Positions 8,789 to 26,383 are shown, counted from the stretch's first letter. The stretch is DNA of 32,000 bases from Trichodesmium erythraeum IMS101 (GCF_000014265.1 NC_008312.1:690001-722000), one strand, 5' to 3'. Notes: generated by a model not told the origin, from the sequence alone. Translations and numbers: made by a program.

Positions 8789-10753
8789 CTAGGGCCTATC
8801 AAACTTATATGCCGGAGGAAAATATTCTTTGCGCATACCACTCATGGCTTGATTCATAAAATCACGCCAGATAGGTGCAACAGTAGTACCACCAGTAGCT
8901 CCATAGTTGAGTGGTCGGTAATCATCGTTACCTACCCAAACGGCAGTTGACAACTGAGGAGTATAGCCAACAAACCAAACATCCCTTTCTGAAGAAGTCG
9001 TACCAGTTTTTCCAGCAGCTTGACGACTTATTCTCGCCCTAGTAGCCGTACCTTGTTCAATTACTCCCACCAATATACTATTAAGTGATGCTACAGCCCA
9101 CTGATTGAGAACCAATTTAGGTTTAGGAGTATTGTCCAATAAGACATTTCCACTAGTATCTGTCACCTGGACAATAAACGTCGTATCAGAATGCCAGCCA
9201 TTATTAGCAAAAGTGGCATAGGCACCCGCCATTTCTAGAGGTGTCAAGTCAACAGAACCCAATGGTAAAGAAATCACGGGTTCCATGGGACTTTTAATTC
9301 CCAAGATTCGACAAACCTCAATCACCTTATTAAGCCCTACAACCTGACCAATTTTAACAGCAGGTATGTTCAGAGAAGATTGTAAAGCCTTACGAATACT
9401 TACTGCTCCAGAATATCCGCCACCATAATTTCGAGGAGAATAATAACCGGTACCATCTCGATAATTAACAGGAGCATCTATAACCACTGAAGATGGGGTA
9501 AATCTACCCGAAGCAAAAGCAGTATAGTAAACAAAAGGTTTAAACGAAGAACCAGGTTGCCTGAAAGCTTGAACAGCGCGATTATATTGACTTGTTTTAA
9601 AATCTGCCCCACCAACCATCGCTTTGACAAAATGAGTGCGTGGGTCAACTGCTACTAATGCTAATTGACCTTTGTCCCAACTCCGATAAAGCCCACGATA
9701 ATATAAGATTTTATGCCATTCACTTACAGTTTTCTCTGCCATCTTTTGGAAGTTCATATCAATAGTAGTTTGTATGCGCATTCCTCCCTTCAGAACAGCA
9801 TCTTTACCGAACCTCTCAGTTAATTCCTGAATAACTGCACTGGTAATATAAGGAAGTTTACTCTTACCAAAAGAAGTAACTTTACCTACATACAATGGTT
9901 GTTTGAGAGCTTCTGCTTCCTCTTGAGCGGTAATCCAATTTAGTTCTCGCATCCTGGCTAGAACTGTTGCCTGACGCTGTTTAGACTTTTTGTAGTTAAT
10001 AAAAGGGCTATATTCCTCTGGCGCAGGAATCATACCTGCCATCAAGGCCGCTTCCGCCAAGGTTAAATCTTCGGAAGACTTATTAAAATAGCTTCGAGCT
10101 GCAGTTTCAACTCCATATAAATTATGGCCCCAGTAAATTTGGTTGAGGTATAATTCTAAAATTTCATCTTTGGCCATAATTTGTTCCATTCTAATTGCCA
10201 AAACTGCTTCAGCTACTTTCCTACTAAGTTTGGCTGTTGGGGAGAGAAACAAATTTTTTACCAATTGCATGGTCACAGTAGAACCACCTTCAACGGTTTT
10301 ACCCCGCTCTAAGTTAGCTACAAGAGCACGCATAATTCCAATGGGATAAATCCCTAGGTGATTGTAGAAATTACTATCTTCGATTGCCAAAACTGCTCGT
10401 TTGAGGTCTGGAGAAATTTGCTTTAGAGGCATGACTTCTCGGTTGGCCTCATCATGGAGACTTGCCAGGGGCCTACCTTTGATATCATATATACGAGTTG
10501 TTTCTGAAGGTGTATAATTTTTGAGCAGCCTTACATCTGGCAGATTACGAAAGCTAATGGCTAAACCTACTAATCCACCAGCAACTAATGAGCTAGTCAG
10601 CATAGTAATGCCTAATACTGTACCTGTTGTAACTTTACCGACAGACTGAACAAACTCGAAGACTGGTGCAGATTTAGATAATGGTTTTTTAGTTTGCTTG
10701 TTTGGGAGAGTGTTGGTGGACACTTTGATTTCACTTCCTTGGATAGACTTCAT
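8789..10753 (-). CDS. Class A penicillin-binding protein (bifunctional GT51 transglycosylase / transpeptidase)
   Basis: There is an N-terminal TM anchor. GT51 motifs are EDSNFYNHLG, GGSTVTMQLVKN and RKVAEAVLAIRME. Transpeptidase motifs are SSFKP (SxxK), SPRN (SxN) and KTGTT. Confidence 0.9.
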   Translation of the reverse strand: MKSIQGSEIKVSTNTLPNKQTKKPLSKSAPVFEFVQSVGKVTTGTVLGITMLTSSLVAGGLVGLAISFRNLPDVRLLKNYTPSETTRIYDIKGRPLASLHDEANREVMPLKQISPDLKRAVLAIEDSNFYNHLGIYPIGIMRALVANLERGKTVEGGSTVTMQLVKNLFLSPTAKLSRKVAEAVLAIRMEQIMAKDEILELYLNQIYWGHNLYGVETAARSYFNKSSEDLTLAEAALMAGMIPAPEEYSPFINYKKSKQRQATVLARMRELNWITAQEEAEALKQPLYVGKVTSFGKSKLPYITSAVIQELTERFGKDAVLKGGMRIQTTIDMNFQKMAEKTVSEWHKILYYRGLYRSWDKGQLALVAVDPRTHFVKAMVGGADFKTSQYNRAVQAFRQPGSSFKPFVYYTAFASGRFTPSSVVIDAPVNYRDGTGYYSPRNYGGGYSGAVSIRKALQSSLNIPAVKIGQVVGLNKVIEVCRILGIKSPMEPVISLPLGSVDLTPLEMAGAYATFANNGWHSDTTFIVQVTDTSGNVLLDNTPKPKLVLNQWAVASLNSILVGVIEQGTATRARISRQAAGKTGTTSSERDVWFVGYTPQLSTAVWVGNDDYRPLNYGATGGTTVAPIWRDFMNQAMSGMRKEYFPPAYKFDRP

Positions 10754-17266: not shown

Positions 17267-17297
17267 GCTCGAAATACTACTCCCTCATCCCTAAATT
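17267..17297. repeat. Distal copy of a 31-nt direct repeat (GCTCGAAATACTACTCCCTCATCCCTAAATT)
   Basis: It is identical, except for one extra C, to 17440-17471, which overlaps the S8 gene stop codon. Confidence 0.85.
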
Positions 17298-17439
17298 AAA
17301 CAAATTTTTGACCTCACTCTTGATAAGATAATAACTAGATTTAATCTTAGACAAATTTTAAAGCTTTCCTATTGCTAGAGAACCTCTTTAATTAGAGGAA
17401 ATTTTAGAAATGTTTAAATTAGATAGTTATTTTGATGAA

Positions 17440-17471
17440 GCTCCGAAATACTACTCCCTCATCCCTAAATT
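17440..17471. repeat. Proximal copy of the 31-nt direct repeat, overlapping the stop codon of the S8 protease gene
   Basis: GCTCCGAAATACTACTCCCTCATCCCTAAATT. The TAG stop (17467-17465, minus strand) lies inside the repeat. Confidence 0.85.
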
Positions 17472-19603
17472 TTATCGGGAATTTTGTCGGGAATTTCTAT
17501 TTCAACTTCATTCTTAACAGGATTATAAATTGAGATATTAGTTTCTAGAGCTTCAAAACTCACAACAAGAGAATATGGAACATCAGCATGTGGATCGTTA
17601 TTCCATCCTTCATGTCCGACTACTGCAATACAAAAAGCTTCTCTAAGGTTATATGAATTAACAGTTGCCCAATCTTTTTGAAGAGTTCCTGCAGTTCTAG
17701 AAACACCCTTAACTTGACCATAATTTCCCTGTTTACCGAGAGTCCATTTAAATGGATCTTCTCCCTTGTCTGAATCTTCTGGAGCATTATCATCCTTTAA
17801 AATTCTTGCTAAAAATCTATCAGGATCTTCTCCTTTTTTGCTACACTCCCAATCAAGCCATGTTGAAAGATATCTTCTTCTATTTCGTCTAGTGCGACGG
17901 GGTTGAGCTTTGTAGGAAAGTGTAATTTCTACTAGAATTTCTAACTCTTCCCCCTGAGAAAGTAATTTTTCTGGTAATTTCACTTGATAAACATGAGCTT
18001 GTTTAGCTTTAATTCTTTGTTCTCCTCTTGTAATTAAAGTGATACGGTTGGCAGAATTTCCTAAAGCACGGTCAATATTAGGAATTCCATAACCAATTTG
18101 ACGTATAATATTTAACTTGTCGATATTTTCATCTCTTGTCCATTCAGGCCATCTAGCTGACTGCACAATTAAAGCACGATATAAAAGACAATTCTCATTG
18201 GGTAATTCAGCAGCTAGACAAGCTGCAATATGGCTAACTTTTGGTGCCGCAAAAGAGGTTCCTACTTGGTTAGAAGATATAGCAGGGCCACCGCTCGGGG
18301 TTGAACGTACCAACTCAGGACAAATTACAGATTCAAAATAAGTAATCTTTGGGGGTGTACTTTCATCCTTGACTAGATCGCCACCATACTCAACTACTTC
18401 TGGTTTAATTGTCTGCCAAATTCCCCATCCTGAACAGGAAAAAGCTGAGGGCATATCTGTTTTTGATATTGAACTATAAGGTGGAGAGTTGTAGTAAATG
18501 GAAGCAACTGAACCAACAGTTAGCGCTTGGAAGCTTTGAGCAGGGTTAGCAATTCTGCAAGAGTCTTCTAAAAGATAATCAGGATAGGGGCGGTTTGCTT
18601 TGAAGTGATCTGTAACTGACAATCTTGTAATACCTATCTTGCTATCTGAAGGTTTATCTAAAGGTAAATTACCAGCAGAAACAATAAATAGAATATCATT
18701 AAGCCAAGTAAGTTGGTCGATAGCAGCTGCCCAAGCACTCATGTAGACTTGGCGACTAGGAACTGCTCCAGTAATTGAATGATTAAATATTCGTGTTTCT
18801 GTTTTCTTGTATAACTCAACTATTTCACTCAGTAAACTAGGTGGAAATAACTTTTCTGGAAGCTTACAATATTGATTTAAAACTCTAGCATTTTGAATCC
18901 AGCAAATAGCTTTTTGAGTACCATTCCGAGGTATATTTCTGGGATAGAGAATAGCACCCGCTACTCTTGTTCCATGTCCGCCATTTTTAACGTAGTCAGA
19001 AGTTTGATCAGTTTCCCCAGGAACCCAGCCAGAGGAGTTTTGTTGATCAATAGCTGATTTTAACAAAGGATGTCTTTCTTCAATACCACTGTCTATTACG
19101 CAGACTTTTGGCGCATTTAATTCAGGTGCTTCTAAAACAAAAGAAGGCTTATCCGTTTCAGATGAGCCTGAGTTTTGAATTAATTCACTAAATTCATCAG
19201 GTTCACTAACATCAAATATATAAGGAAAGTTCAAAACTAGATCCTTTAAACCTTTACCTGAAATCTTCATTCGACATGAAAAGCTATCTGGTAACGATGC
19301 TCCTGCTACAATTTTCCCGTCTATGAAACTTTGAATGTCTGCGTTGTAAAAACTCACAAACTTTTCCAGTTCATCTTGACGTTTTAGTTGTAGTTCATCC
19401 CAAGATTCATAAGTCATATCACGCTTGTCCATCCAAGTCTTGACTCTTTTTTTATATTTATCTTTACTTTCATCATATTTTCGATTCGGATGCTTGGGCA
19501 ACATTGATTTCGTTCCCAGACAAGCAATTCCTACATCAACTGTATAAATTTGGTCGCCCTTTACTCTATCCCAGTGAGAACAAAGTTCAGGAGAAAGAAT
19601 CAA
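17465..19603 (-). CDS. Large intracellular S8 (subtilisin-like) serine peptidase, IetS-like; the reading frame is open for 58 more codons upstream (to 19777)
   Basis: Catalytic set: VCVIDSGI (Asp), GGHGTRVAGAI (His), IVSAGN (oxyanion Asn), GTSFAAPKVSHIAA (Ser). No N-terminal signal peptide is evident. About 170 aa on the N-terminal side and about 230 aa on the C-terminal side carry no motif I recognise. The track start is a TTG. Upstream codons stay open up to a TAG at 19780-19778, which lies 5 codons after ATG 19795. Confidence 0.85.
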   Translation of the reverse strand: MILSPELCSHWDRVKGDQIYTVDVGIACLGTKSMLPKHPNRKYDESKDKYKKRVKTWMDKRDMTYESWDELQLKRQDELEKFVSFYNADIQSFIDGKIVAGASLPDSFSCRMKISGKGLKDLVLNFPYIFDVSEPDEFSELIQNSGSSETDKPSFVLEAPELNAPKVCVIDSGIEERHPLLKSAIDQQNSSGWVPGETDQTSDYVKNGGHGTRVAGAILYPRNIPRNGTQKAICWIQNARVLNQYCKLPEKLFPPSLLSEIVELYKKTETRIFNHSITGAVPSRQVYMSAWAAAIDQLTWLNDILFIVSAGNLPLDKPSDSKIGITRLSVTDHFKANRPYPDYLLEDSCRIANPAQSFQALTVGSVASIYYNSPPYSSISKTDMPSAFSCSGWGIWQTIKPEVVEYGGDLVKDESTPPKITYFESVICPELVRSTPSGGPAISSNQVGTSFAAPKVSHIAACLAAELPNENCLLYRALIVQSARWPEWTRDENIDKLNIIRQIGYGIPNIDRALGNSANRITLITRGEQRIKAKQAHVYQVKLPEKLLSQGEELEILVEITLSYKAQPRRTRRNRRRYLSTWLDWECSKKGEDPDRFLARILKDDNAPEDSDKGEDPFKWTLGKQGNYGQVKGVSRTAGTLQKDWATVNSYNLREAFCIAVVGHEGWNNDPHADVPYSLVVSFEALETNISIYNPVKNEVEIEIPDKIPDKI

Positions 19604-19825
19604 CTCTGGTTTCTTAGTACCATCAATTATTTCCCATATTCCAGCAACTGCACCACTTTTATTTTCTTCTGCAATAAATTTCTCTATTTTTGTCTGTAAT
19701 TCACTAAGCTCTAAATCTACTGAAGCACCAATGATATATCCTTCTTCTAATTCGGCAATTAACTCTATTCCATAACCCTATTGTCTTTCTACCATTTGAA
19801 CTTTATTTGACCCTATTTTTAAACT

Positions 19826-20833
19826 TTAACTCCAATAAGCTTTTATTTCTGCAACAACTTCCTCCAAATGTTCGTGAATCACCAACTCTTCCCTTTCCAG
19901 GATAGCTCTTTTAGCTGCATTTTGACCTACTTTAACAGCTTGAGCAGCAGAAAAATTACTCATTTGTTTAACAATTAAATCCCATTTAATAGAACCAACT
20001 GCCACAACAGATAAAGTTTGTTTTAATATTCTCTGAAGCTCATTTTCCCCTGGTTTTGGAACTAAAATTAAATCGTCAAATCTTCTCCAAAGAGCAGTAT
20101 CTAAAGACTTATTTAGATTTGTTGCTGCTACTACAAGACCAGAATTTGAGCTATACTCATCAAGAACTTGTAGAAATGTATTCACCACCCGCTTAATCTC
20201 TCCTACTTCCTGACTATCTTCCCGCGATCTAGCAATAGAGTCACATTCGTCTAAAAATAGCAAACACGGACTTTCATTCGCCATATCAAAAACCGATCTT
20301 AAATTGCTGGCCGTCTCACCTAAGTAAGACGAGATCATTGCATCAAAGCGAACTTTTACCAAAGGTAAACCTGTATTCCACGCTAAACGTTCAGCACCTA
20401 AAGTTTTACCACAACCTGGTGGCCCATACAACAGAATTTTTTGTCTATAGGGCAAACCATAATGGGCCAGTCTATCTCTGGCAACATACTCACGTTCAAT
20501 TCGCCGGAAACGTTTTTCTACAGTTTCCGGTAAAATCATATAATGCTGCAACTTATCCCTAGATATATAAGAGACCAAGGGATTTTCAAACCTCTTACTT
20601 TTGGGAAGTTCACTTAGAGGTCGTAACTCATTCGAGTTCTGTGATAACGTAGTTCCTGGCTTGGAGGTACTAGACTTCTTTCTATTTTTAGTAATATTCT
20701 CTAACTGTTCAGCAATTCGGGTATGTCCTTTTTTGCGTTCCTCTTCTATTGCCAGAAACATCAATTTCTCAACCGCTTCGTTATCTGAACTAGCGATCGC
20801 TCTAAACAGTCTTTTGAGAAGCTCTGCTTTCAT
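19826..20833 (-). CDS. Classical AAA+ ATPase, IetA-like (335 aa from ATG 20833; the track ORF starts at TTG 20845)
   Basis: Motifs: Walker A GPPGCGKT, Walker B LLFLDECD, sensor-1 VVAATN, and the second-region-of-homology/Arg-finger stretch LDTALWRRFD. It has an N-terminal domain of about 110 aa that is helical plus low-complexity. GAGGGG lies 4 nt upstream of ATG 20833. One HIP1 site lies inside the gene (about 20789). Confidence 0.85.
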   Translation of the reverse strand: MKAELLKRLFRAIASSDNEAVEKLMFLAIEEERKKGHTRIAEQLENITKNRKKSSTSKPGTTLSQNSNELRPLSELPKSKRFENPLVSYISRDKLQHYMILPETVEKRFRRIEREYVARDRLAHYGLPYRQKILLYGPPGCGKTLGAERLAWNTGLPLVKVRFDAMISSYLGETASNLRSVFDMANESPCLLFLDECDSIARSREDSQEVGEIKRVVNTFLQVLDEYSSNSGLVVAATNLNKSLDTALWRRFDDLILVPKPGENELQRILKQTLSVVAVGSIKWDLIVKQMSNFSAAQAVKVGQNAAKRAILEREELVIHEHLEEVVAEIKAYWS

Positions 20834-21072
20834 TTTGCCCCTCAATATTTAGTAATATTGCCTTCAATAAACATTATAACTTGATTATTTTATCAATAAC
20901 AATAAGAATATTTTAAACCACATTCGGGACGTCAACTTGTAACATTAAAAGTAGTAGCTTGCTAAGTATTTATAATATATAAATCATCTTTTTTATGAAG
21001 TTAACAATTTGTTATCCATAACCTCGCACCTGTTGTTGTCATTAGGTTATTTTATATTAGAAAAAATTAAAA

Positions 21073-21261
21073 TCAATTGCCTGATATTTCCTTCATTTTT
21101 AGTAAAAAGTTTAGCCAACCTTGGTGCATTAGCCAAAACATATAAAACCCTACTAAAAAATTACTAATAATAATCAGAGAAAAACTTCTAATTTGCCATG
21201 CTATAGCTATCAACACACCCAATAGCAAAGAAATTACAATTACAGTATACAGCTCCAGCAT
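21073..21261 (-). CDS. Hypothetical small membrane protein (62 aa, two hydrophobic helices)
   Basis: ORF track. Hydrophobic segments are LYTVIVISLLLGVLIAIAW and FSLIIISNFLVGFYMFWLM. I recognise no homology, so the coding status is uncertain. Confidence 0.35.
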   Translation of the reverse strand: MLELYTVIVISLLLGVLIAIAWQIRSFSLIIISNFLVGFYMFWLMHQGWLNFLLKMKEISGN

Positions 21262-21287
21262 TATTTAAATTTTCCTTCATGAAATCT

Positions 21288-21317
21288 AAAAGGTTCCCTA
21301 TTTCTAGAGAACCTTTT
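21288..21317 (-). terminator. Hairpin downstream of tkt (9-bp stem AAAAGGTTC/GAACCTTTT, 12-nt loop); candidate intrinsic terminator
   Basis: The inverted repeat is perfect. On the minus strand the stem is followed by TTTTAGATTT. It lies about 140 nt after the tkt stop. Confidence 0.5.
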
Positions 21318-21456
21318 AATTATAATTGATAATTTGAGATAGCTAATAGGCAGATATAGCAAGCACTACAATTAAGGCATAAAACTTTACAGATAATAGC
21401 TTAAAAATTTAAACCCTAACTGATAGCCGATCGCTATAAACAACCCACCATCAAAA

Positions 21457-23475: not shown

Positions 23476-24904
23476 AGTTATCGTTATCTATATAATTAAT
23501 CAAGTGTGTAAATGCCAGAGCTGATCAACCAGATATTTTTCTACAGTGATATTTGTCTGGAATGTTTCTCAAGCCATATACATTACAGATCATCTCACCT
23601 GTGGGGAACTCTAGGCAAGAGAAGTTATCAAGTTAAAATTTTTCCGGCCATCTGCAGTTAAACTTATGATATTGACTATACTTATTATTGTTAAATGAAA
23701 AGTTAATTAACTGTTGCTTAAGTTACTTTGGAGAGTATTTGTCAAGCAAATATTAAGAAGGTTAGAAAACTTTCCTTGCAATACTTATGGAGTTTTTGGA
23801 GGTTTTTCCTACGACAATATTTTTTCGTATCTTTTACTGGTTGAGTGAAAAAAAGTTACATTTGGCTTTGATGTATCATAAAGCATCAGAATTAATACTT
23901 ACATACCCAAACAATCAACTGGGTTTATTGTCCTAATTATTTTTGTTCTCTCTCCTCACCTTCTGCTGATAACCTGGTTTCTACATAATTCCTACCTAAT
24001 GATCATATTGATTATCTAAAATTGTAGTGAAGTAAATTCTAATTAATACTGTCTATATCACCCTACTTTTGCAACTCTTATCAAATATTCAGTAAATATA
24101 TATTTTGCTAGTTTGATAATATAAACTCATGTAGTAAATTTTATAAAATCTGATACTTCAATAACTATCCCATTAAACTAGAGTTTCTAAAATATACAAA
24201 AAACACAGGGGATGACTTTCTAAATTTAACGCTAAAATTAAATATGTTTGTGCCTATTTTAGACATAGTTTTTATATTAATTTAGTCATAAAATGTTAAA
24301 TAATTTTGCTATAAATATCATATTTTCTGGTATAATAATCATCATATCTAAACCCCAATATCTTTTTGATAAAAGCTTTCATGGTTTATATCATTAATTT
24401 ATATGGGAGAAAATTTGCGGAATCGAACTGAAGCTAAGTTTGATAAATATAGTATATAATTTATAGTTATAAACATATAATAAACCACAAAAATAAAACA
24501 TAGATTTTGTAGATTGAAAGGTATAAATAAAGAGTTAAATGTTAAGAAATTAAATTATTTTAACTTCAGTTCATTCCATGATAGAGATATTAATGAAACT
24601 ATTAACATTTTGAATATAGCTTCACCCAAAATCTAGGTTGAAATAATCAAGAAAATAAGATAAAAAAAAACCAGTTCAACTATTACTTTTTGTTTGTCTA
24701 ATAGAACAGAGTTCTATGTTCTATCCAGTCGCAGAGGGACAAACCGAGATAATTAAATAGAAAAGGAGGAAACGTCAGACTGCCTCTAAGTCAACAGATT
24801 TTAATAAGTCGTCAACTGACCCTGACTTTAGCCAACTTTAGTTATTTTGATGAATAGGACCCTCTGTTGTCTCCTAGAATAACCGAGGGAGAATATAAAT
24901 CTAA

Positions 24905-25075
24905 ATGCTACTCCCCGATCCAATTGTCGTTATTCCCAGTATTCCTAATTGCAGCATTAAAGTTATTAGGCCATTCATACTTTATAGTCAGTGGACTTAT
25001 CAAAATTATGGAATTCTTGACAGAATACATCTGAGATTTTTTATCGAAAAATTGGGTTTAAAGCTTCCTCCATAA
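24905..25075 (+). pseudogene. Possible relic of a class I SAM-dependent methyltransferase C-terminus (56 codons)
   Basis: This short ORF is below the track cut-off. It reads MLLPDPIVVIPSIPNCSIKVIRPFILYSQWTYQNYGILDRIHLRFFIEKLGLKLPP. The GILDR(T/I)HLRFF(T) block resembles a motif I recall from Methyltransf_11/23-type proteins. It lies isolated in a 2.9-kb gene-free stretch. Confidence 0.25.
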
Positions 25076-26383
25076 GCAGGGGATTTTTAGTTGTTTTTTT
25101 TGAATGTATATATTAAAGTTTTGCTAATTAATCTTGTGCCTATATTCTAGTATGGGGTTTTGTGGTTAATGAAAAACAATCCTTTTTCATTGCTTCTCAA
25201 ATCTCTGAAGTCTAAGATAAAATTTCCCATTACTATTAGACTTATATAAGCTTTTAGTTTAGATTAAACCCAAAAATTGCTATCCTGCCTGAGGTATTAT
25301 TATCTATTAGTAGTATGCTTTATTTGATTGTGAATACTGTGGCTTAATTTGTGAAGCGTGACTTAAATGCTACGTGACTTAAATGCTAATTGAAATCTAA
25401 TTATGGAGTTCATTAACTAAAGGTTTGCCAGGGAAGTTTGATAATGCCGATGTAGCTAGGTTAAAGCAGGAAAAGAACTCATATCAGCAAGCATCTTCAG
25501 AGATTTATGTAAATAATTGTAAGTTTCTTAGAACAGTAGTAGTTATGCATAAAATGGGCATGGAGTCAAGTATAAGGCTAGGATCAAGTTTCCTCTCATC
25601 GGAATGAAAAGTATTAACTTTTTACACATCAAGGGACTGAAGACTTTCTACTGTCAAGAACCCCTCCGGGTCTAACAGCTAGGGAGTATCAAAAAATTGT
25701 ATAGCAGATATATTTTTGTCTGATTTGAAACCTATTGTTCCATAACACTTATACCCCATGTCAAAATTTAGTATTTCGTATGAACCATTCTTTGCTTTGT
25801 CTGAAGATAACTATGAAAATTATAGGTTAAAATATTTATGACATTTTAATAATAATAATTTTTGTTATTATTAATAATAGAAGCGGTAATAATTTTTTTT
25901 CTAACAACTGATACGCAGCAACCTAACTTAATCCTTAACAACCTATACTATTACTTTTAGTGCTAAACATACCTTGAAAATTCACCGTATAAATTTATCT
26001 ACTGAGAGGTTATCTTAGAGAAAACCTATCTAAATTTGCTTGTAAGTACTATAATTTTAAGTAAAGTATATTGTTAAAAAGCAAGGGTATACCAAGTTTA
26101 TTGAGATTACCCCAGGTTTATTAACAATATGCATTGGCCCTGGGGAGTATATCCGAATTTTGACAAGCTATTCTTGTAAGCCTTTGACTACATATGTCCT
26201 TAAAGTGATCGGCACTAAGAGAAGCTCATTAGCAAAACTCAGGCACGGAAAATACTTAAAATACTTATCAGGGATTAGGCCACAAGATGATTTGATCGTC
26301 AGCATCCCTAATCACGAGCTAAATGTTATATTCAGGTATGATTATTAGCTTTAGATTCCAAACTATAAACCTTCTTTTAGTAT

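Follow-up and report, generated by a model that had tools for sequence, protein, structure and literature searches.

Does the reference strain Trichodesmium erythraeum IMS101 carry a working anti-phage protease module beside its transketolase gene? This question is raised by a window of 32,000 nucleotides (GCF_000014265.1 NC_008312.1:690001-722000; all positions count from the first letter of this whole stretch), in which two co-directional minus-strand genes lie between a LOG-family gene on one side and tkt (transketolase) on the other. An original prediction had read these genes as an AAA+ ATPase followed by a cytoplasmic S8 protease and had likened the pair to IetAS, which Gao et al. reportedly described in 2020 as an anti-phage system. 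Our open reading frame (ORF) scan recovered both genes (19826-20845 and 17465-19603), and the ATPase and protease motifs that had been named were all located. What had been missed is that the protease gene (ietS) is the remnant of an 867-amino-acid (aa) gene, which has lost 273 bp and carries an early stop codon; the ATPase gene (ietA) is intact. The reading we prefer, to which we assign a probability of about 70%, is that of a chromosomal IetAS-family toxin-antitoxin or abortive-infection module in toxin-first decay.

The annotated ietS ORF (Tery_0448) comprises 712 aa, occupies 17465-19603 and starts with a TTG codon at 19603. Upstream of this codon, the S8 frame remains open as far as 19777, where its translation begins with GYGIELIAEL..., and it is preceded by a short ATG-initiated stub that ends in an in-frame TAG (Table 1). 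The TTG at 19603 is the first ATG, GTG or TTG beyond this stop, 59 codons on. The closest database protein (P0001, 867 aa) is 97% identical across 100% of the window ORF, and in this intact protein MVERQ is followed by residues 6-96 (SQKFPH...DPDKL) and K97 before GYGIEL is reached. From a DNA alignment with three environmental Trichodesmium contigs that bear the intact gene (L003, L006, L007), it can be seen that the window lacks exactly 273 bp and that the junction lies between 19780 and 19779. Where intact alleles read ...CAA T/CT CAA ... CTT A/AG GGT (slashes mark the breakpoints), the window reads CAA T/AG GGT. The deletion is frame-preserving in itself, but it removes residues 6-96, recodes residue 97 and, by fusing T to AG, places a TAG at codon 6. 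Its breakpoints are without microhomology.

The remaining frame keeps the catalytic motifs in the order Asp (VCVIDSG, 19085-19105), His (GGHGTRVAG, 18956-18982), Asn (IFNHSI, 18773-18790) and Ser (GTSFAAP, 18242-18262). When 40 homologues were compared, D326, H365 and S605 (867-aa numbering) were invariant and N429 was nearly so, and Pfam Peptidase_S8 (PF00082) matched the ORF with E = 1.7e-31 (110 bits against a gathering cut-off of 21.8). Thus, the predicted catalytic set stood and the wording "at least 712 aa" had been suitably cautious; the idea of a complete gene had to be given up.

An assembly or sequencing error of the reference genome could mimic such a lesion. In one scaffold (L005), a gap of 100 N falls precisely at the position of the deletion, which shows that assemblers have difficulty there when alleles are mixed. 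Yet the identical junction was found in the complete IMS101 genome, in a separate T. erythraeum assembly (GBRTRLIN201, GCA_018457135.1, L002) and in metagenome contigs of different projects (L001, L004). L001 and L002 are 100% identical to the window across 8.2 kb, and L004 bears the junction on a different haplotype. We regard an artefact as extremely improbable.

The segment that was lost contains 13 positions that are invariant among 30 cyanobacterial homologues (H11, I12, L14, T35, N38, R42, H45, G46, L49, E70, P73, L84, D87). The intact N-terminus (MVERQSQKFPHIQLRRTSSG... / MVERQSQKFPHIQLRRTSSGNAAPASGRRKPNPQ) is hydrophilic and, by inspection, carries no hydrophobic signal sequence, as had been predicted. 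A local Pfam search detected neither Inhibitor_I9 nor any other Pfam domain in the N-terminal region of intact IetS, and for PF27160 (Y4kK_N) there was a weak precomputed match only. A secreted subtilase, for which a signal peptide or an I9-type propeptide was looked for in intact IetS by inspection and by Pfam, does not fit the protein better. Structures of intact IetS were modelled with AlphaFold2, first with 30 cyanobacterial homologues and then with 40 mixed cyanobacterial and proteobacterial sequences, and the mean predicted local distance difference test score (pLDDT) was 45 and 58, respectively. In the 40-sequence model, residues 10-290 reached a pLDDT of 70-90 and half of the S8 domain stayed below 50; here, the deleted residues are predicted to fold into the strand that comes first in the N-terminal region, together with a long helix and another strand. 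Comparison of the model with the PDB by Foldseek yielded weak matches only (subtilase, furin and Kex2; template modelling score ~0.14, root-mean-square deviation ~18-30 Å over long alignments), and the N- and C-terminal regions are therefore left without a fold assignment. No structure resembling IetS was returned by a sequence search of the PDB, in which subtilisin BPN' matched in its Asp-His segment only.

The C-terminal extension holds an arginine-rich motif, SYKAQPRRTRRNRRRYLSTWLDW (17873-17902, minus strand; residues 719-740 of the intact protein), which is nearly invariant in cyanobacterial and proteobacterial IetS homologues that are only ~43% identical overall. It may serve as a processing site or bind either nucleic acid or IetA.

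To which family does the pair belong? The ATPase matched the PADLOC IetA model PDLC02196 with E = 1.2e-81 (residues 9-330 on profile positions 6-318 of 374), and three more PADLOC IetA models matched it with E-values from 1.5e-78 to 1.3e-42. For the protease, the IetS model PDLC02198 gave E = 3.2e-54 with the window ORF and 1.5e-55 with the intact allele (profile positions 246-780 of 795). Besides IetA and IetS, the PADLOC scan of the pair returned nothing close, and the best NCBIfam matches were IteA_antiphage (NF042959) and IteS_antiphage (NF042956). The predicted gene order, ATPase then protease, recurred with the genes adjacent in all 12 of the other genomes or plasmids examined. The spacer measures ~20-35 nucleotides (nt) in the cyanobacterial chromosomal copies; on two plasmids there are 3 nt or an 8-nt overlap. 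Full-length relatives of IetS were found in many cyanobacteria (64-80% identity), on Synechocystis and Leptolyngbya plasmids (54%) and in Burkholderia, Ralstonia, Xanthomonas and others (~41-45%). Judged by these matches, the pair may be placed in the IetAS family in a broad sense, and at this family level the original prediction holds.

The partner gene shows no lesion. The ATPase ORF stood as predicted in its extent, 19826-20845 with a TTG start at 20845 (339 aa), but this start was not retained, since the database record (WP_011610304, T. erythraeum IMS101, exact-sequence look-up) begins at ATG 20833 and comprises 335 aa. IetA carries Walker A (GPPGCGKT, 20402-20425), an aromatic pore loop (SYLGE, 20315-20329), Walker B (LLFLDECD, 20240-20263), sensor-1 (VVAATN, 20117-20134) and the WRRFD arginine fingers (20075-20095). 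The suggested Pfam assignment to AAA (PF00004) was borne out as well (E = 2.1e-32, 112.8 bits against a gathering cut-off of 21.2). In a sequence search of the PDB, the closest solved structures were Cdc48/p97 D2 domains (E = 1.7e-51). Rings of Cdc48/p97 D2 domains are substrate-threading unfoldases. IetA is the putative antitoxin or regulator; its aromatic pore loop is intact, its motifs are p97-like, and its control of IetS is probably exerted by ATP-driven engagement of part of the protease. ietA and ietS lie side by side in the same direction with the ATPase upstream, and 30 nt separate the ietA stop codon (19826-19828) from the original ietS ATG at 19795. At 0.34-0.39, the guanine-cytosine (GC) content of the two genes is unremarkable. 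In Lyngbya aestuarii BL J, ietA (L008 3929-4918) encodes GPPGCGKN instead of GPPGCGKT; the conserved Thr/Ser is replaced, and ATP/Mg binding may be impaired in this protein.

Trigger, substrates and ATPase-protease coupling had been called uncharacterised, which was overstated, since toxin-antitoxin behaviour and a phage trigger have been shown in homologues. In SgiAT of Salmonella Genomic Island 1 (SGI1), toxicity resides in the protease and is neutralised by the ATPase (PMC5006074). TA132/133 of Mycoplasma mycoides likewise consists of a protease toxin and an ATPase antitoxin, and deletion of the toxin was tolerated while deletion of the antitoxin alone was lethal (PMC8562856). For IetAS of the Agrobacterium Ti plasmid pTiC58, toxin-antitoxin behaviour is reported second-hand in these two papers. 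A homologue from Bacillus cereus works through abortive infection, for which the SPbeta protein YosG (gene yosG) is the trigger (bioRxiv 10.1101/2022.08.27.505566). According to a 2026 source that still calls the anti-phage mechanism unknown, IetAS defence requires protease activity, and attempts to obtain constructs with mutated ietA failed (PMC13069673).

By analogy with these homologues, intact IetS would be a cytoplasmic subtilisin-type protease with toxic activity, and IetA would restrain it in an ATP-dependent manner, for which engagement or remodelling of the protease is the most plausible means. Were this control broken, either by a trigger such as a phage protein or because IetA is no longer supplied, IetS would cleave cell targets and growth would stop. 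The conserved N-terminal region of IetS is a candidate handle for engagement by IetA. In IMS101, full-length IetS could presumably not be produced, the module is most likely inactive and ietA would survive as an orphan antitoxin gene. A working toxin is unlikely in this strain because there is a stop at codon 6 and 91 conserved residues are lost.

Intact and deleted ietS alleles coexist at one locus in wild Trichodesmium, together with other broken variants (allele counts were drawn from a public assembly collection and from cluster listings). Both genes are intact in L003 and L007, and in the window ietS is interrupted by the deletion and the TAG. The 712-aa (or 711-aa) deletion form was present on 23 contigs, and intact forms comprise 865-877 aa. 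In addition, we found a gene split into 467 and 385 aa, a 648-aa form with an N-terminal truncation and a 737-aa form with a C-terminal frameshift. In P0140 (Trichodesmium sp. St19_bin2, 877 aa), an in-frame tandem duplication of 10 residues (ISSDTVGTSF ISSDTVGTSF) lies exactly at the catalytic serine motif; this is a further inactivating lesion or else an artefact of the assembly. IetA comprises 335 aa in every full-length copy listed in its cluster, and the exact 335-aa sequence is indexed in 77 blocks of the assembly collection. Two broader scans are to be read differently. A metagenome scan with IetA was dominated by the generic YGPPGCGK pattern and thus returned distant AAA proteins, not Trichodesmium population samples, and a scan of a genome collection returned five loci, none from Trichodesmium, and is no measure of prevalence across cyanobacteria.

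The 3' end of ietS is polymorphic too. A 52-bp insertion turns the tail ...EIPDKITI into ...EIPDKIPDKI and provides the stop codon that is used in the window; the tails found among alleles are ...PDKIPDKI, ...PDKITI and ...SEVETEISEKITI. A perfect 28-nt direct repeat occurs at 17270-17297 and 17444-17471, and its second copy overlaps the ietS stop codon inside the insertion. A 12-nt tandem repeat (17468-17496) encodes IPDK-IPDK at the C-terminus. The 273-bp deletion and the 52-bp indel, which are 2.5 kb apart, occur in all four combinations (window, L004, L007, L003). By this four-gamete test, the alleles have been reshuffled by recombination, which implies that the deletion is not brand new.

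Nucleotide divergence among alleles was 1.4-3.6% in ietS, versus 0.1-0.4% in ietA and tkt of those contigs whose IetA is identical; for ietA of L007 it was 0.6%. The differences among Trichodesmium alleles cluster in a mosaic patch upstream of the catalytic domain (Table 1), in which the proportion of synonymous differences (pS) was 0.05-0.14 and that of non-synonymous differences (pN) was 0.03-0.10, compared with a pS of ~0.005-0.02 in ietA. One allele pair showed 14 non-synonymous and 0 synonymous differences in this patch, and among the 30 cyanobacterial homologues, residues 181-240 form the least conserved blocks. Between two intact alleles, pN/pS was 0.61 overall and 0.39 in the catalytic plus C-terminal part. 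The elevated diversity is therefore a property of ietS, with its mosaic patch, and not only pseudogene drift. The patch is a candidate specificity, sensor or trigger-recognition region.

Several observations weigh against a disabled IetAS module. Coverage by the PADLOC IetS models is confined to the catalytic domain and the C-terminal extension; the first ~275 residues of the intact protein are left unaligned. The NCBIfam equivalog cut-offs were not reached (IteA 228.9 versus 510 bits, IteS 113.3 versus 900 bits), and these scores mark the Trichodesmium proteins as homologous, not equivalent, to the validated IteA and IteS. By its sequence, the pair belongs to a distinct subfamily with proteases of ~860-890 aa. 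The coupling step between ATPase and protease is deduced from motifs and homologues, and a full-text literature search returned no expression or activity data for Tery_0448 or Tery_0449. Between two deletion alleles, pN/pS in the catalytic plus C-terminal part was 0.86, but this value is based on just 12 substitutions and does not demonstrate relaxed constraint. Finally, the 770 codons after the stop are open and all catalytic residues are kept, so that a truncated protease might be made from the TTG at 19603 or a later ATG; a weak promoter-like site is located at 19758-19731.

Such a protease, of 712 aa or shorter, might still work with IetA, in which case the deletion would be tolerated or even adaptive. 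The annotation as S8 family peptidase, which has no pseudogene wording in its name (NCBI), agrees with this explanation, and so do the abundance of the allele, its age, which sufficed for recombination, and the frame of 711 aa that is likewise open on the second deletion haplotype (L004). However, an open frame is expected even in a young pseudogene at such low divergence, the canonical start lies 59 codons past the stop and, by inspection, has no obvious ribosome-binding site, and the lost residues include the invariant positions and the modelled strand-helix-strand. Moreover, the same gene has suffered several clearly destructive lesions within the genus. We therefore consider a functional truncated module unlikely, and decay that began with the toxin remains our preferred reading.

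How long has the module resided at this site? Trichodesmium shares the position of the pair, immediately 3' of tkt and behind the conserved acpP-fabF-tkt block, with five further cyanobacteria that represent two orders (Lyngbya aestuarii, a Nostoc, a Scytonema-type contig, Rivularia and the metagenome-assembled genome J06633_8). When genome pairs were compared, the amino-acid identities of IetA and tkt were 0.92/0.90, 0.94/0.89, 0.83/0.82 and 0.71-0.77/0.73-0.76, and Trichodesmium and Lyngbya were sisters in both the IetA and the IetS tree. Shared linkage, the tracking of tkt identity by IetA and this sister relationship indicate long residence at the tkt site. These data point to an old resident of the tkt-downstream slot in filamentous cyanobacteria and not to a fresh insertion, which is in line with the earlier suggestion that the module is not a very recent arrival. 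That suggestion had been derived from a HIP1 site inside the ATPase gene, and there is indeed one (20793-20800); the whole window holds 14 versus 0.02 expected by chance. A HIP1 site (GCGATCGC) also lies within the 273-bp segment deleted in IMS101 (L003 11055-11327), and the remaining ietS of the window contains none. The Nostocales framing of the original prediction was mistaken, since exact-sequence look-ups assigned the LOG-family gene, the 712-aa ORF, the ATPase and transketolase all to T. erythraeum IMS101, and Trichodesmium belongs to the Oscillatoriales.

The pair is not core in cyanobacteria, however, and the core synteny named as a possible refutation was not found. Okeania sp. SIO1I7 (L021), a member of the sister genus whose tkt falls in the same 90% cluster, has tkt, a 62-aa ORF and then a VapBC-like pair, but no ietAS at this site. 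Homology with Okeania extends over tkt and the 62-aa ORF as far as 21057 and reappears only at a downstream hairpin copy (Table 1). The equivalent points are ~160 bp apart in Okeania (L021 10479-10638), with the VapBC-like pair beyond. The 3.65-kb segment that distinguishes the two sites comprises ietA and ietS with the promoter region in front and a short tail at the 3' end. Four cyanobacteria carry the pair elsewhere. In Calothrix sp. NIES-4071 (L013), it lies beside an Eco57I-type restriction-modification gene with CHAT, Trypco2 and DUF4365 genes; in Microcoleus, it follows groEL; and the copies of Trichocoleus and Hyella occupy other unrelated loci. In the tree, the copies from Microcoleus and Trichocoleus fall within Nostocales sequences, a sign of some horizontal transfer. 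Full-length homologues were also found on Synechocystis, Leptolyngbya, Planctomyces and Burkholderia plasmids. PIN and CHAT genes surround ietAS in Rivularia and J06633_8. Taken together, this suggests that the 3' flank of tkt is a recurrent, long-lived landing place for defence and toxin-antitoxin genes. Conflict-type genes seen around ietAS or in this slot (L013, L009, L011, L021) also include a CHAT protease fused to CHASE2 and PIN/VapBC pairs.

The same data bear on the idea that the pair is a domesticated cellular AAA+/protease system (regulated proteolysis, programmed cell death), inherited vertically with acpP-fabF-tkt and free of any conflict role. The shared linkage and the pairwise tracking of tkt would be in keeping with it, as would the conservation of IetS, which at 76% mean column identity across 30 cyanobacterial sequences is unusually high for a defence gene. 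Nevertheless, its absence from the Okeania site, where a VapBC-like pair is found instead, the restriction-modification neighbourhood in Calothrix, the scattered and partly transferred copies, the plasmid-borne homologues (one of them close to an integrase gene of a conjugative plasmid in Burkholderia), the gathering of PIN and CHAT genes in the same slot and the repeated breakage of ietS in Trichodesmium are hard to reconcile with domestication, which we judge very unlikely.

We also considered that tkt-linked IetAS is an ancient and mostly vertical module with a slow ATPase, a diversifying protease patch and a balanced polymorphism of working and disabled alleles in the wild. Here, residues ~150-300 of IetS would diversify by recombination and possibly by positive selection, and the ATPase would evolve as slowly as transketolase. 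If this doubtful proposal were true, the module might act as a regulated self-killing or phage-abortive switch with relevance for bloom dynamics, and IMS101 would be a natural null. We continue to favour a toxin-antitoxin module whose toxin gene has been inactivated first.

Table 1. Features of the ietAS locus and their positions in the window
Feature	Position	Strand	Description or basis
ietA-like gene, classical-clade AAA+ ATPase	19826-20833	-	335 aa; PADLOC IetA, Pfam AAA; intact
ietS 5' stub	19778-19795	-	ATG 19795-19793, V-E-R-Q, in-frame TAG 19780-19778; translation MVERQ-stop-GYGIEL
Remaining ietS frame	17465-19777	-	770 codons plus stop; corresponds to residues 98-867 of intact IetS (867 aa)
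Hypervariable mosaic patch of IetS	19169-19618	-	residues ~151-300 (867-aa numbering); upstream of catalytic domain
Polymorphic 52-bp insertion, ietS 3' end	17435-17486	-	allele alignment, repeat and tandem-repeat scans
Candidate sigma-70-type promoter of the ietAS operon	20873-20902	-	TTGTTA-18-TATAAT; consensus match, 10/12
Segment present in Trichodesmium, absent at the Okeania sp. SIO1I7 site	17406-21056	-	BLAST against L021
62-aa ORF with two hydrophobic stretches	21073-21261	-	between tkt and ietA
Strong terminator-like hairpin, upstream repeat copy	21276-21319	-	downstream of tkt; minimum free energy -18.5 kcal/mol
Degenerate second hairpin-repeat copy	17351-17405	-	83% identical to upstream copy; core 17353-17388

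The flanks of the pair had been described as AT-rich, gene-free and repeat-bearing, and these features were all found; their use as evidence for an accessory insertion was not sustained. ORFs of at least 100 aa sum to ~49% of the 32-kb window and the intergenic GC content is 0.19-0.30 throughout. Because such DNA is general in the window, it provides no evidence of insertion. The candidate ietAS promoter lies ~40 nt upstream of the ietA ATG and is the top-scoring promoter-like site on the minus strand, but it is a consensus match only, and promoter-like sites in the region are not more numerous than expected from shuffled sequence.

The hairpin downstream of tkt is unusually stable (z = -4.2; none of 200 shuffled sequences folded as well), and its core repeat (repeat family D1) spans 21282-21317. 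The second copy, 60-115 nt past the ietS stop codon, folds no better than shuffled sequence. These are the 2 matches of the motif in the window. The repeat unit of ~45 nt consists of a TATAAT-like box followed by the strong hairpin (AAAAGGTTCTCTAGAAATAGGGAACCTTTT), and there are two copies each in Trichodesmium and Okeania. They bracket the 62-aa ORF plus ietAS in the former and the 62-aa ORF alone in the latter (L021 ~10195-10234 and 10646-10686). The repeat could act as a terminator or an operator, or it could represent a small mobile repeat.

The 62-aa ORF was considered as a part of the module and rejected, since it is conserved (77% identity) in Okeania sp. SIO1I7, which lacks ietAS at this site; it has no counterpart in Nostoc and appears as a small gene of the tkt neighbourhood. 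Besides the pair and this membrane ORF, the window ORF scan detected no ORF of at least 60 aa in the interval between tkt and the LOG-family gene. On the other side of tkt, 2.9 kb towards fabF (23476-26383) contain no ORF of at least 100 aa. Okeania carries a lipoxygenase gene there, and tblastn found no lipoxygenase remnant in this gap. An Rfam search of the window returned no RNA family.

The family, the gene order and the toxin-antitoxin and abortive-infection behaviour are already known, and the pair would be flagged by any PADLOC run on this public genome. New are the null-type allele in the reference strain, the polymorphism of intact and deleted forms, the variable patch and the conserved tkt linkage; the classification is unchanged. 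IMS101 is the laboratory model of Trichodesmium, a major marine nitrogen fixer, and it is probably a natural null for this module. Automated tools would call a complete IetAS in this strain, as the 712-aa ORF still matches the models, which calls for caution in censuses of defence systems. Natural intact and deleted alleles with identical IetA offer matched material for the role of the conserved IetS N-terminal region, and the hypervariable patch is a concrete candidate for the trigger-recognition surface.

When compared with the IetAS system of Gao and colleagues, the Trichodesmium pair is alike in having the AAA+ ATPase first and the S8 protease second, in its strong matches to the hidden Markov models and in a cytoplasmic protease whose catalytic set is complete and whose large C-terminal extension is covered to profile position 780 of 795. 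It differs in that intact cyanobacterial IetS comprises 867 aa, versus ~750-800 positions in the profiles, with ~275 N-terminal residues unaligned, and in that the protease gene of the window is cut by a deletion and a stop. Plasmid-borne homologues from Synechocystis sp. PCC 6714 (pSYLC), Leptolyngbya boryana and Burkholderia plantarii (bpln_1p) have this architecture over their full length: residues 1-863 of the query were aligned (54% identity in the cyanobacteria, 41.5% in Burkholderia), and the AAA ATPase gene is immediately upstream. Unlike the Trichodesmium copy, that of bpln_1p is on a conjugative plasmid and close to an integrase gene. IetS-type proteins of Agrobacterium plasmids are only ~24-26% identical, and only over residues ~312-863. 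The three-gene system ietHAS (Liu-DS4; PMC13069673) shares the IetA plus IetS core but includes an SNF2 helicase, which the Trichodesmium locus lacks.

With pTiC58 IetAS, SgiAT and TA132/133, the locus shares the two-gene layout of an AAA-ATPase antitoxin and a subtilisin-like protease toxin. Those systems are mostly found on plasmids or islands, which they stabilise, whereas the Trichodesmium copy is chromosomal and lies between housekeeping genes. In decaying chromosomal toxin-antitoxin systems, the toxin is usually inactivated before the antitoxin is lost (PMC13617665). The logic of a toxic protease and a neutralising ATPase predicts exactly the toxin-first decay that is seen in the window.

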